DNA of 64,000 nucleotides from positions 88,579-152,578 of IMG/VR virus record IMGVR_UViG_3300028591_000102. One strand, 5' to 3'. The translations under genes and the position numbers were made by a program. Below, piece by piece: positions 348 to 7,872 of this stretch (its first letter is position 1; every line of letters starts with the position of its first letter). The stretch comes from a virus. Its lineage: Duplodnaviria; Heunggongvirae; Uroviricota; Caudoviricetes. The notes under the pieces were generated by a model, which was not told the DNA's origin, did no database searches, and worked only from the letters and a program-made list of their open reading frames with translations.

Positions 348-2168
348 ATGGCTGAAATATTATATGGAGATGAAGTGGCGTCTTTGACGCCACTTCGCTC
401 CCAAGTATACTAGGCAACTCATAGTGGTAATTCTGTTTTACCATATATGAATCGTTCATTTATTAGTTTTTCTTTTGGAGAAAAAAATATTGAAGATTTT
501 GGTTTAATAGCTACTATTTCTGGTGACAGAATTGAACGTGATGGGTATGCTGGTTTTAATGATTTAACATCTACATATGAAGTATTAGATGGTCAATTCT
601 ATTGGGGAACATATTTTACTAATAATTCTATTGAATTTAATTTAGCTACAGATGGAATTGATTAGGTAGAATTAGATAATTTCCTATTGTGGTTTAAGCC
701 TGGTATTATAAGAGAATTAGTTCTTGCAGAACATCCCAATCGTGCTATTCTCGCGCGTGTGTCTTAGCCGCCGCAATTAAAATTATTACCATTTGAAAAG
801 AAAATTGCTGTACCAATTGGAACAAATACATATACTACAAGTACAACAATATATAAAGGTAATATTATTTTAACGTTTGTAATGGATGATCCTTTTTGGT
901 ATGGTAAAATTAATATTTTTGGTAAACAAGATCCCGATGGAGTATATCGTGATAAGTGGCTAGATGTTACTACTGGAAAAGAGCGTAATGCATTAGATAT
1001 ACCAGACGCACTTAAAATTTTGTATGAAGATGGTATTCCATTAGGGAGCATGATTAAGGATACTATGCTACTTGGAGGGAATATTTTTGCTTCATATGAA
1101 ACAAAATTAATTTCAAAGATTGTTAATTTTATTACATAGGCAACTTATCAATTTAATGCAGATAAAGAAGGATATTATAATAACGGTTTAGCAATTGATT
1201 TAGTTGATAGTGAAGGTGTTCCTTAGGAATATTATACAGGCGCGGTAATTGCAACTGTTGATGAAAATCAATAGTATATACGGGGCGGTAAAATTTCAGG
1301 TACAAATATGGGCAGTTCTATTGGTTCTGTTGAGCTTAATTCAATTGGAGGAATTAATGCAGTAATTAATTTTTATTACTCTGGTACTGCGCCTTCACCA
1401 GTTTTGCTTTCATTTAAAACTTATCCACATATTGATAATGCCTCAGGTTATATTGATAGTCCATGCAATGAGTATGCTTCTTCATTGCCGACTGGAGAAC
1501 ATTATAATACTATTACTATTGAATGTACAAAGAAAAAAGAGTTTAGAATCACTACTCCAAATATTCTTACAAGTTATAATTAGGTTATTAAGATTTTTTC
1601 TTCTAATTTGATAACACCAGGATTAGATTGGGCGAATGTGCGTGAAACTATTCGTGAAAGTGTATGGCATTCTGGTGTTCGCGCATGGGCAAATAGAGTC
1701 ATTGATTTATATGATCATTCTACTTCACTCGGTGTAATACCAGCAATTACTAATTTATAGACTCGTTTGAGAAATGCTATGTCATATTTCTTAAAAGATT
1801 CATCTGGTAGATTATTACCAATGGTATTTACTTTTGATAGTAGACGAGGTGAATCAACTGGCGTGTTCCAATATAGAAATTGTATAAATGAAAATACTGG
1901 AGAAGTATATGCAGTACCAACTGATACTTCTGTTGCTCAACGTGAAACTAAATTTGGTTCATACTGTTCTACGAATATAAAGACAGCAGAAGAAAATGTT
2001 GGGGATATGGTAAAATCAAAATACTTAATTATAGATGAAAGAAATTATCCTAAAAATGGATTTATTGTTGGATGGAGTAATTCAGATCCATCTACGCATC
2101 GTTTTTATCATAATTTAACAACTGGTATGTATAATTTACAATTTGAATATAAGAATATGTATCTATAA
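348..2168 (+). CDS. Tail structural protein, distal-tail (Dit)-like by position, ~606 aa. The ORF-track fragments 447-665, 882-1139, 1308-1583 and 1767-2168 are all in the same frame and are joined by 8 in-frame TAG codons
   Basis: ATG at 348 follows RBS agaggggg. The track ORFs share frame 0. TAGs at 411, 663, 763, 1137, 1225, 1273, 1581 and 1758. The gene ends at TAA 2166-2168. Product is inferred from gene order (tape-measure, Dit, tail fibre). Confidence 0.55.
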
Positions 2169-2190
2169 TTGAGTTAAAGGAGGAGATATC

Positions 2191-5100: not shown

Positions 5101-7872
5101 AATTCTGATGCAGACGAGCTGACTATAGTTATTAATGATGAACGTTTAAAATCTTATAGTGAGTATTTTACAATATATGAAAATGACGCTTATGATGATA
5201 AAGAAAAATGCTTTATTAGTATTAAACCAAAAACATTATTACGTTTTGGTAATGATTTAATGAATTTAAATTTAGAATATGTAATTTCTAATGCTGCAGA
5301 AAGTATATATCTTGATGCGATTAAAGTAATGAAAGAGAATTCTACTCCAAAAGTTACATATTCAATGAAATTAAATCATATAAATAATAGTTTAATTCAT
5401 ACGGCATATAATTTATTACGCAGGGTAGTATATATTAATGATATTGAATTATAGTTTGATAGTATAGCTGGTTATATTTCTTCTATTGAACTATCGTTAG
5501 AAAAACCCTGGGAAGATACAGTAGAAATAAAAAATTATGAGACTAAGTTTGAAGATTTATTCTCTACAATTGTGGCATAGACAGAATCGATGAAGAAGAA
5601 TGAGACGGCCCTTAGTTTTGCCGCGGCCGCATTCACTGGTGACGGAATAATTTCTTCTAATATTTTAACCGAAAGTATGTTAAAAGTTGATTTAAATTAT
5701 GCTTTTAATTAGGGTACTCTTACCATTAATGAATAGAATGGTATTTGGGGTACTAGTGATAGCGGCGTGATTGCTTTTAGAGGCGGCGGTATTTTTACTG
5801 CAACTTAGAAAGATTCTGCTGGTAATTGGATTTGGAATACTGGTATTTTACCAACTGGTATTAACGCAGACTTAATTACTAGCGGTCAACTAGATACTGA
5901 AAAAATTAAAGTTTATGCTGGAGATAAAGTTAGGTTTCAACTTAATGCGGATGGTTTATTTGCATATAAATCTTATTTTGATGAATAGTTGGTTGGTGTA
6001 GATGATGAACTTAGCCAACGTTTAACTATTTATGATAATCAGTTTAATAAGGGTTATGATGCGGCGCAATATGTTGTATATAATCAAGACGGATTATTCT
6101 TAATGGGTAAAAAAGGATTCCAAATTTTTGATTTTGAAACTAATCAATTTAGAAAAATTTTAACAGATGTTGCGCGTGTAGAAGTTAGTTGGAATGGTTT
6201 TATTATGCGTAACTGGGACGGTGAAAAGATTCTTTGGGCTGATCCAGATAATAATGGTAATTTAGAGCTTTCTGGTAAAATTACTTCTACATCTGGTAAT
6301 ATTGGCGGTTGGGAAATTAGTCCTACTTCTCTTACGGGTGGTAATGTTGTTCTCGCAACAGGAAAGGCAAGAGATGATGAAAACGGTATATTCTTAACTG
6401 GTTCGAGTTCTTCCGCTGTTACTATTACATATGAAGGAGAATTATATTACTAGTATGTTGATGTTGATACTAAGACACAGAAGTATTATTTACAAGAGTT
6501 TAATTCTGATGTATTAACTGGCACTCGTACTGTAAAACAATTTTAGACAGTACCCAAATCAGTTGTTCCAAAGTATGTTATTCCTGCGCCAAATCCAAGT
6601 GCTCCTGCTTTAACTTCTACAAATAATAGTACTAGCGCAGTTAATAGCTCATATAATAATACAGAAACGACGCCAGAAGGCACGGTAAACTATACTGTAC
6701 CTGGTGGCACTGTTTCACTTTATGCTAACGCTGAAGTTGCAGATTCAAATTTATATGGATTATATGTTGGTATAAGTAAGACTGAAATGGCTAAATATGG
6801 CGGAAAACCGATTCCATATAATTATACAGTCGATTTAAATACTGAATGGTATGTACATTTAAAATCTGCATATCCAAATTCATATTTAAATTATGTAGAT
6901 ATTGCTTAGTCATCTGAATTAAGAGATGTTAATATTGATCAAAGTATTATTCTTGATAATTTTAATGCTACATTTAAAGTTAAGGCGAGTAATGGAGAAA
7001 CTATTATTAATCGTGGTTTCTTTGGAAGTTATGGTAGTGGTGGATTTGAACTTAAAACTAATGGACTTTATGGCGGTTCATTATATAATTCTGCAATTAG
7101 TGCTAATTGTACTATTAGTGGTTATAGCTTAGCCAATTATGGAAGTATTTTCTGTGGTTTCTCATCTGACTCTGCTGCCGGTACATTTACGTTAAAGCGT
7201 ATAAATAATACCACTGTAAATTTTAATATTGCCGCGACTGAATTTTATCGTAAGAATATGGCCGCGGCAGGAACTTTAACTGCGATTGATAGCGCATATA
7301 CTTACGAAAAAGCATTTATTACAGTGCAGAGTGGATATGGTACAAGAAAAACATTTTCTGTAGATATTACTTCTGTTTATACAGATGCGTGGTAGGCAGG
7401 ATATGATAAAGGATATATTACAGGAAGAGACTATGGTAAAAAAATTACAAGTGTAACGGTTTCTATGAGCTTTACTTATAAACCATCTAGTCATTCGGGT
7501 GAAGTAGAAGCGGTCGCGTATGCGCAATCACGAGGAGGCGGCTCAGGTAGTAGCAGTCCAAAAAAGATGGACCTATCCCTTTATTTGAAGAACGAATATA
7601 ATGCTGGCATAAAATCGGTAAGTGGCATAGAAAAAGACAGAAATTGGGATTGGAGTGCAAGTGGAAATACTATTACATATACATCTACTGTAGCATTAAC
7701 TAATGAAAAGACGGTTACTTGTGGAGGTGCTAATACTTCATTTGGTCAAGCTAGATTCGAGGCTGGACGTACTGCGGGTATTAATTCATTTAGTCATTAT
7801 GGGAAAGCATACTTATATACAACAAAAAGTAACAACGCGATTGGAGTTTATCATGATTGGTATTATAAATAA
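2191..7872 (+). CDS. Giant tail fibre / tail-associated (Tal or receptor-binding-like) protein of ~1893 aa, spanning 29 in-frame TAG codons
   Basis: RBS aggagg then ATG at 2191. Track ORFs 2371-2757, 3646-4248, 4606-4830, 4834-5070, 5260-5454, 5989-6453 and 7465-7872 all share frame 1 and are separated only by TAG. The gene ends at TAA 7870-7872 and is followed by a hairpin terminator. It is Gly/Ser/Thr/Asn-rich and repetitive, as tail fibres typically are. Confidence 0.6.

Follow-up and report, generated by a model that had tools for sequence, protein, structure and literature searches.

Recoding of the TAG (amber) stop codon in phages was reportedly described by Ivanova in 2014. Late-gene-biased recoding under genetic code 15 is found in the Lak, crAss-like and other clades, for which a timing model has been proposed, and a heavily recoded homing endonuclease lies inside the early region of the Agate phages (Borges et al., bioRxiv 10.1101/2021.08.26.457843). 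In crAss-like phages, the insertion of glutamine at UAG was shown by metaproteomics (Peters et al., PMC9523058). The Phassvirus group (phAss-1, BK046881 and BK025033) consists of siphovirus-like phages of ∼135 kb that are related to phages of Bacillota hosts (PMC10607447); TAG occurs in ∼28% of their open reading frames (ORFs), their tape measures have ∼3,150 residues and they carry 28–36 tRNAs and 2–3 tRNA-Sup(CTA) (Babkin et al. 2023, PMC10607447). In this study, 64,000 nucleotides (nt) of the tailed-phage record IMGVR_UViG_3300028591_000102 (positions 88,579 to 152,578; hereafter the window, numbered from its first letter) were analyzed, starting from two large genes at 348–7872 that are interrupted by in-frame TAG codons and are referred to here as gene 1 and gene 2. 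The source is a tailed phage of roughly 165 kb whose tail module is siphovirus-like and whose replication module is distantly related to SPbeta-like phages. UAG is very probably read as glutamine in a defined subset of its genes, by means of a phage tRNA(CUA) that is inferred from relatives, and the replication genes are free of UAG.

This arrangement resembles that of the crAss-like, Lak and 'gemstone' clades, in that in-frame TAG occurs in structural genes, the replication genes are largely without it and TAG is rare as a stop; as in those clades, standard-code and recoded members are mixed and a tRNA(CUA) is found in part of the genomes. A further feature, shared with the Agate phages, is a homing endonuclease among the early genes that is heavily recoded. 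The Agate clade (154 +/- 27 kb, mixed codes) is also the nearest in size, the comparison having been made by size and code use only; the terminase gene lies outside the window.

The two genes occupy two reading frames (348 mod 3 = 0 and 2191 mod 3 = 1), as was proposed in an earlier, sequence-only reading of this region, and the proposal that TAG is their sole interruption was borne out. Reading from 348, eight TAGs (at 411, 663, 765, 1137, 1224, 1272, 1581 and 1758) are the sole in-frame stops ahead of the TAA at 2166–2168. From the ATG at 2191 to the TAA at 7870–7872 there are 1893 codons, including 29 TAG, 0 TAA and 0 TGA, whereas the two other frames of gene 2 contain 70 and 127 TAA and 20 and 134 TGA. 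Local trinucleotide frequencies predict 36 TAA and TGA codons together in gene 1 and 113 in gene 2; the chance of observing none, as is the case, is 2e-16 and 5e-50, respectively. Standard-code translation divides the region into ∼40 short ORFs of 30–200 amino acids. When the genes were re-called with TAG as sense, full-length ORFs appeared (608 and 1899 codons, plus several elsewhere in the window). Judged from these frames, TAG must be a sense codon in the recoded genes of the window.

The short ORFs obtained under the standard code might alternatively represent pseudogenes or assembly or sequencing artefacts, in which case the fragments would never be joined into one protein. This explanation is scarcely credible, since every interruption is TAG and never TAA or TGA, there are no frameshifts and the interrupted genes are essential structural genes. 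An independent assembly, the 133,993 bp contig k141_1067871 of ENA ERZ27256846, which was reached through its dUTPase, differs from the window at 1 base in 19,825, and the gene calls made on it read TAG through to give proteins of 606 and 1893 amino acids. Furthermore, 31 relatives behave in the same manner with their TAGs at other positions.

The relatives of gene 1 comprise more than 80 loci in IMG/VR and JGI metagenomes, at 27–59% identity and mostly over the whole protein; full-length homologues have identities of 32–59%, and 41 homologues could be extracted in full for comparison. Between three and 16 in-frame TAGs, at positions varying by locus, are present in 31 of the 41, the other ten have none, and an in-frame TGA or TAA was found in none of them (0/41). 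Homologues aligning only to individual fragments had been named as a possible refutation of read-through; the opposite was seen, with homologues spanning the whole of both genes. The gene order is also kept, with a tape measure exceeding 3,300 amino acids followed by gene 1 and gene 2 (1,600–2,650 amino acids) and, on the opposite strand, a gene for ∼135 amino acids, a RuvC-like gene, a dUTPase gene and, further on, a GIY-YIG-like gene. In the recoded members (∼30 relatives), the RuvC-like gene contains 2–13 TAGs and the GIY-YIG-like gene 7–14, and the dUTPase gene between them nearly always contains 0. The gene-by-gene partition of the recoding is conserved across the family.

Within the window, recoding was found at 348–7872 as first described, but it is not confined to this region, because seven further genes or gene ends contain TAG (Table 1). 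Together, genes 1 and 2 and at least six more genes that need read-through contain 81 TAGs in 4,690 codons, whereas the 39 counted genes of the replication and nucleotide-metabolism block contain 0 internal TAGs in 12,823 codons. This TAG-free set includes dUTPase, NrdD/NrdG, DNA polymerase III alpha, RecJ, primase, DnaB and both topoisomerase II subunits, as well as DNA ligase, RNase H, RNA ligase and RNA-repair genes and a methyltransferase. The profile matches of the PhoH-like, RuvC-like and GIY-YIG proteins in PHROGs extend across the TAGs; that of the RuvC-like protein covers residues 80–235 and crosses three of its five. TAA and TGA were proposed to remain terminators, and every gene in the window does end on one of them save two in the block, those for DnaB and a DUF5662 protein, which end on TAG. 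Both have a back-up TAA or TGA, 4 and 11 codons further on, so that late read-through would add a short tail only.

It could be argued that the host itself reads UAG as sense and that the phage follows the code of its host without any phage-driven switch. The 64 kb window of this phage yielded no suppressor tRNA, in agreement with the earlier reading, and neither ARAGORN nor Rfam detects a tRNA of any kind in it. However, the 39 block genes contain 410 glutamine codons and 0 TAG, whereas TAG makes up 41% of the glutamine-type codons in the recoded genes, a partition that would be pointless unless part of the genes had to be translated in cells where UAG terminates. In addition, a tRNA(CUA) is encoded by relatives themselves, the corresponding genes of ten relatives follow the standard code throughout and we know of no bacterial lineage with a UAG-to-glutamine reassignment. 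A UAG-sense host is therefore very unlikely.

In the recoded genes UAG almost certainly stands for glutamine, as the earlier reading had supposed by precedent; four lines of sequence comparison (alignment, composition, replacement of CAG and the PhoH-like protein) agree on this assignment. In the alignment of the 41 gene 1 sequences, glutamine is the most enriched residue opposite TAG (3.2x overall and 3.6x in standard-code relatives), followed by the usual substitutes of glutamine, namely lysine (2.0x), asparagine and glutamate (both 1.4x). At the two best-conserved TAG columns of the window, the other sequences have Q14/TAG13/E10 and Q19/K9/TAG8. Glutamine encoded by CAA and CAG accounts for 3.23% of residues in standard-code relatives and 1.98% in recoded ones, and this shortfall of 1.25% (p = 5e-5) comes near the TAG frequency of 1.48%. 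It is the largest difference of all residues and the second in significance; a difference in cysteine, far smaller in size, has a comparable p value (7e-5). The tape measure behaves similarly, with 4.9% glutamine in a standard-code relative and 2.9–3.7% glutamine plus 1.9–2.4% TAG in recoded ones. The recoded genes of the window use TAG 81, CAA 100 and CAG 15 times, compared with 0, 248 and 162 times in the TAG-free genes; this scarcity of CAG where TAG is used shows that TAG stands in place of CAG, from which it is one C-to-T transition away. Finally, the TAG at 43118–43120 in the PhoH-like gene aligns with the glutamine of a conserved 'GQK' stretch in PDB entry 3B85.

The properties of the tRNA(CUA) found in relatives nevertheless raise the possibility that UAG is sense but encodes another residue, for example serine, tyrosine or leucine through a class-II-like suppressor tRNA, or pyrrolysine. 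Its length of 86–89 nt, long variable arm and G73 are as in tRNA-Ser, but serine is not enriched opposite TAG (1.0x); its anticodon stem is that of the tRNA-Tyr in a related array, with loops that differ at two positions, but tyrosine is not enriched either (0.7x), and the same holds for leucine (0.5x) and tryptophan (0.6x). Among the isotypes predicted in the literature for phage suppressors, some are not glutamine (PMC10879173). However, only glutamine shows a compositional deficit equal to the usage of TAG, and neither the specific replacement of CAG by TAG nor the alignment of the PhoH TAG with a conserved glutamine fits another residue. The tRNA(CUA) also has U1-A72, G2-C71 and G73, which we take to match known identity features of tRNA-Gln. 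The name 'Pyl' that ARAGORN gives to this tRNA is merely its default for any CUA anticodon, no pyl genes are present among the proteins scanned, and decoding as pyrrolysine was rejected because, in addition, UAG is spread over structural proteins and aligned with glutamine. Another residue at UAG is accordingly quite unlikely. Decoding of UAG by tRNA-Gln(UUG) through a first-position G-U wobble was also considered as a route to glutamine; with 29 to more than 100 UAGs in each ORF, such wobble would be much too inefficient, and it was rejected.

A search with the methyltransferase near the right end of the window gave 16 related loci. In relatives, an array of 10–30 tRNA genes lies 0.5–3 kb upstream of this gene on the same strand, which, carried over to the window, would be just past its right end, on the strand of the standard-code block. 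A ROOL RNA (Rfam RF03087, 258–277 bits; Table 1) separates the array from the methyltransferase gene in relatives. The right end of the window matches a second contig from the same sample, k141_401403 (31 kb), which extends 2.1 kb past the window and contains a ROOL RNA (197 bits) whose 5' end is cut by the contig end; this region is 89.6% identical to that of locus L094, compared with ∼73–75% for the flanking genes. The array of this phage should start a few hundred bases to ∼1.4 kb past the contig end. In relatives, the array begins with a tRNA whose anticodon loop is CUCUAAA, directly after a conserved gene for ∼113 amino acids; this 86–89 nt tRNA, almost unchanged across five contigs, combines a long variable arm with U1-A72 (or A1-U72) and G73. 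A search with the ∼113-residue protein gave 23 loci, all with TAG-rich late genes upstream (2.7–20 TAG per 1000 codons), and among those that continue past this gene, 11 of 19 contain a tRNA(CUA) (nine within ∼40–700 nt and two elsewhere in the 8 kb fetched). Two proteins encoded beside the array, the isochorismatase and the ∼113-residue protein, are members of very large families, and the copies of this phage were not among the 120 matches listed. On the basis of these relatives, it is inferred that this phage encodes a tRNA(CUA).

An exact 18 nt anticodon arm, GGCGGTCTCTAAAACCGC, is present in the suppressor tRNAs of 29 viral contigs (L105 1716–1801, L121, L127, L128 6126–6214, L133 7309–7394 and 24 further IMG/VR contigs within L112–L139). 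The tRNA bodies that share it differ, and include a 75 nt tRNA-Gln-like form and 86–91 nt forms with long variable arms, a pattern that suggests either strong selection on an 'extended anticodon' or exchange of the arm between tRNAs.

In the proposed mechanism, which follows the model of Borges et al. for the Lak, crAss-like and other clades, a standard-code host would translate all TAG-free genes on entry, and the tRNA array would be equally usable early if it is expressed with the TAG-free block. The genes that contain TAG (the tape measure, the two large tail genes, the RuvC-like resolvase, the GIY-YIG endonuclease, the PhoH-like ATPase, the 938-residue protein and some small genes) would give a full-length product only after suppression of UAG, presumably by the phage-encoded tRNA(CUA) that, to judge from relatives, heads a large array. 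The genes that would depend on suppression include a junction resolvase, a type of enzyme that acts at packaging, and all tail genes seen. From the functions of the recoded genes their expression is taken to be late, and the partition would then time the synthesis of late proteins in a host that uses the standard code.

Several observations weigh against this mechanism or against glutamine as the residue. The tRNA(CUA) was not seen for this phage itself, as contig k141_401403 ends ∼200 nt short of the expected array, and no tRNA(CUA) was found in eight of the 19 recoded relatives within the 8 kb fetched. The long variable arm and G73 of the suppressor are unlike those of a normal tRNA-Gln, which leaves its charging unexplained. 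Glutamine-rich columns were found for only three of the eight TAGs of gene 1, with glutamine the commonest residue in two, and alignments at 30–50% identity are noisy. Furthermore, the GIY-YIG gene, with its 13 TAGs, sits behind a consensus sigma-70 promoter, so that any control would act on translation and not on transcription. Even so, the three competing explanations (another residue, a UAG-sense host, and pseudogenes or artefacts) are each contradicted by several results, and even when taken together they remain improbable beside the reading of UAG as glutamine in a subset of genes.

Sense TAG, its alignment with glutamine and its concentration in structural and late genes would, from the sequences compared, make this a code-15 recoded phage, the suppressor tRNA having been seen in relatives only. 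The Phassvirus group is similar in its large genome, long tape measure and many tRNAs and in a suppressor anticodon arm identical to GGCGGTCTCTAAAACCGC, the tRNAs and the arm being those of the relatives studied here. However, no similarity to gene 1 is detectable in that group, and phAss-1 is not among the best matches of the DNA polymerase. The tape measure has 5,755 residues here compared with ∼3,150 in the Phassvirus group, and the suppressor of the relatives is a single class-II-like tRNA of 86–89 nt in place of a pair consisting of a 75 nt tRNA-Gln-like form and a 91 nt form. The SPbeta-like and Enterococcus EF1-like siphoviruses have the closest polymerase (YorL), a large genome and a long tape measure, but their genetic code is the standard one and no relationship of their structural genes is detectable.

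The phenomenon of recoding is already well documented, and knowledge of it is unchanged by this finding; the phage perhaps represents a new family of recoded phages, and the tape measure, the ROOL RNA, the shared GGCGGTCTCTAAAACCGC arm and an interrupted tRNA-Gln described below may be newer than the recoding. For annotation, TAG must be taken as sense, as otherwise ∼14 kb of essential genes, including a 1,893-residue tail protein and the last part of the 5,755-residue tape measure, break into fragments. The analysis adds a large undeposited phage family, known from more than 80 metagenome loci and mixing standard-code and recoded members, and its sharp and consistent partition into recoded and TAG-free genes makes it a good natural system for testing the timing of late proteins by recoding.

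The gene that ends at 345 was called as a 5,755-residue protein in contig k141_1067871, with a match to the Pfam family PhageMin_Tail, and is a giant tape measure. Tail length is usually ∼1.5 Å per tape-measure residue, from which a tail of roughly 0.8–0.9 µm is predicted. The gene continues ∼17 kb to the left of the window (L008 19481–20780); in relatives (L001–L006 and L009–L074), the tape measure fills the whole 10 kb flank upstream of the gene 1 homologue and exceeds 3,300 residues, and those of recoded relatives contain 46–102 TAGs. The 5,755-residue protein was not among the matches of a search with the C-terminus of the tape measure. As genes 1 and 2 directly follow the tape measure, they occupy the places of the distal tail protein and of the tail tip or fibre in siphoviruses. 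Gene 1 is probably a distal-tail or baseplate protein and gene 2 a tail tip or fibre protein, these roles being read from gene order, as neither protein, nor the 938-residue protein, has a match in Pfam, PHROGs or PDB sequences. The earlier label of tail fibre for gene 2 thus agrees with its position after the tape measure but gains no family match. The ribosome-binding sites had both been described as AGGAGG-type, which is true of gene 2 (AGGAGG) but not of gene 1 (GAGAGGGGG). Likewise, both genes end on TAA as stated, but only gene 2 is followed by a hairpin; gene 1 ends 22 nt from gene 2 and runs directly into the ribosome-binding site of gene 2 with no hairpin between them. The terminator after gene 2 is the meeting point of the late genes on the plus strand and the block on the minus strand.

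Among deposited phages, no nucleotide match to the first 20 kb and no tblastn match to gene 1 were found, so that this may be an undescribed lineage; the GTDB genomes contained no related prophage. The closest deposited sequences to the DNA polymerase III alpha are YorL of SPbeta-like phages and the polymerases of Enterococcus phages (35–37% identity over 99% of the length), a likeness that points weakly to a Bacillota host.

Table 1. Positions of features in the window and, where a locus or contig is named, in relatives or in contigs of the same phage.
Feature	Position	Strand	Details
Tape-measure 3' end	1..345	+	2 in-frame TAGs in window, 8 in last 432 codons
Gene 1, probable distal-tail or baseplate protein	348..2168	+	606 aa, 8 in-frame TAGs, stop TAA; matches no known family
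Gene 2, probable tail tip or fibre protein	2191..7872	+	1893 aa, 29 in-frame TAGs, AGGAGG ribosome-binding site, stop TAA
Bidirectional intrinsic terminator	7883..7912	.	13-bp stem, T runs both sides
128-aa gene	7911..8297	-	2 in-frame TAGs
RuvC-like Holliday-junction resolvase	8294..9046	-	250 aa, 5 in-frame TAGs, PHROG match
Standard-code-compatible block, recoded genes interspersed	9046..63759	-	39 genes counted
127-aa gene (as called in source contig)	10018..10401	-	1 in-frame TAG
GIY-YIG homing-endonuclease-like gene	10403..11437	-	344 aa, 13 in-frame TAGs, PHROG match
Perfect sigma-70 consensus promoter	11495-11467	-	directly upstream of GIY-YIG gene
Formate/nitrite-transporter family protein	11492-12055	-	TAG-free
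DnaB TAG stop	23880-23882	-	
Xanthine/uracil permease	39678-41009	-	TAG-free
Nucleoside 2-deoxyribosyltransferase	41571-42137	-	TAG-free
PhoH-like ATPase	42536..43801	-	4 in-frame TAGs, PHROG match
938-aa protein	47667..50483	-	18 in-frame TAGs; TAG-free genes around it
ADP-ribosylglycohydrolase	51405-52211	-	TAG-free
Band 7 protein	52280-53215	-	TAG-free
Rnl-type RNA ligase	53906-55147	-	
DUF5662 protein TAG stop	57589-57591	-	
TROVE/DUF2828 (Ro-like) RNA-binding protein	59495-61012	-	
Metallophosphatase	61513-62127	-	
P-loop kinase (Zeta_toxin/AAA_33)	62120-62596	-	
Methyltransferase	62741-63514		
ROOL RNA, this phage	L007 1-494 (window-equivalent ~65,605-66,098)	-	just outside window
ROOL RNA, relatives	L094 8699-9293; L095 6786-7365; L097 8351-8940		
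Interrupted tRNA-Gln, relatives	L104 7494-7648 (insert 7528-7610); L098 7383-7497 (also L108, L141); L140 5367-5525 (also L153)		
Pth2-like peptidyl-tRNA hydrolase, relative	L094 7599-8000		by sequence motif
Array oddities, relatives	L093 1306-1382; L098 3242-3316; L095 5089-5160; L094 1310-1662; L098 2078-2620		

The promoter of the GIY-YIG gene (TTGACA, 17 nt, TG, TATAAT) matches the consensus at 12 of 12 positions and is the sole 12/12 match in the first 12 kb. Five TAG-free auxiliary genes of the block, for the transporter-family protein, permease, deoxyribosyltransferase, ADP-ribosylglycohydrolase and Band 7 protein listed in Table 1, are unusual for a phage. The window shows neither RF2 nor an aminoacyl-tRNA synthetase.

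In relatives the array closes with tRNA-Gln(UUG), which is in some contigs interrupted exactly in the anticodon loop, after GGACUU, by one of three tRNA-like elements, and is intact in eight contigs. The inserts are an 83 nt tRNA-like element with a CUA anticodon (Rfam tRNA, 43 bits), a 43 nt acceptor/T-arm minihelix ending in ACCA and an ∼85 nt tRNA-like element; two of the three types recur in independent assemblies. In L143, L149 and L150 the insertion lies after the D arm, and the start of an HNH-like ORF is shown in L143 and L150. Group I introns were ruled out as the inserts, 43–87 nt being too short; one true group I intron was found (L101 732–977), which by its flanks appears to lie in a protein-coding gene and not in a tRNA. 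A literature search found no description of tRNA-in-tRNA inserts. Such inserts are, to our knowledge, without precedent. It is conceivable, although unlikely, that the code switch does not rest on an ordinary tRNA-Gln(CUA) but on a class-II-like suppressor together with a tRNA-in-tRNA intron, possibly also beyond this window. RNase P and RNase Z would then release the inner elements, and the phage RNA ligase would rejoin the outer halves; if true, the result would be a new kind of tRNA-in-tRNA intron, dependent on proteins, by which the supplies of tRNA-Gln and of the suppressor are coupled.

A cluster of RNA-related genes near the ROOL RNA and the array, encoding the RNA ligase, the Ro-like RNA-binding protein, the metallophosphatase and the P-loop kinase of Table 1, looks like a tRNA repair or processing set, and locus L094 also has a gene for a Pth2-like peptidyl-tRNA hydrolase. 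The arrays of relatives contain odd tRNAs with an anticodon loop of 8 nt (ARAGORN 'aaga') or 6 nt, the array of L094 contains a tmRNA (105 bits), and the anticodon loop of one array tRNA is split by an ORF-containing insert of 470 nt.

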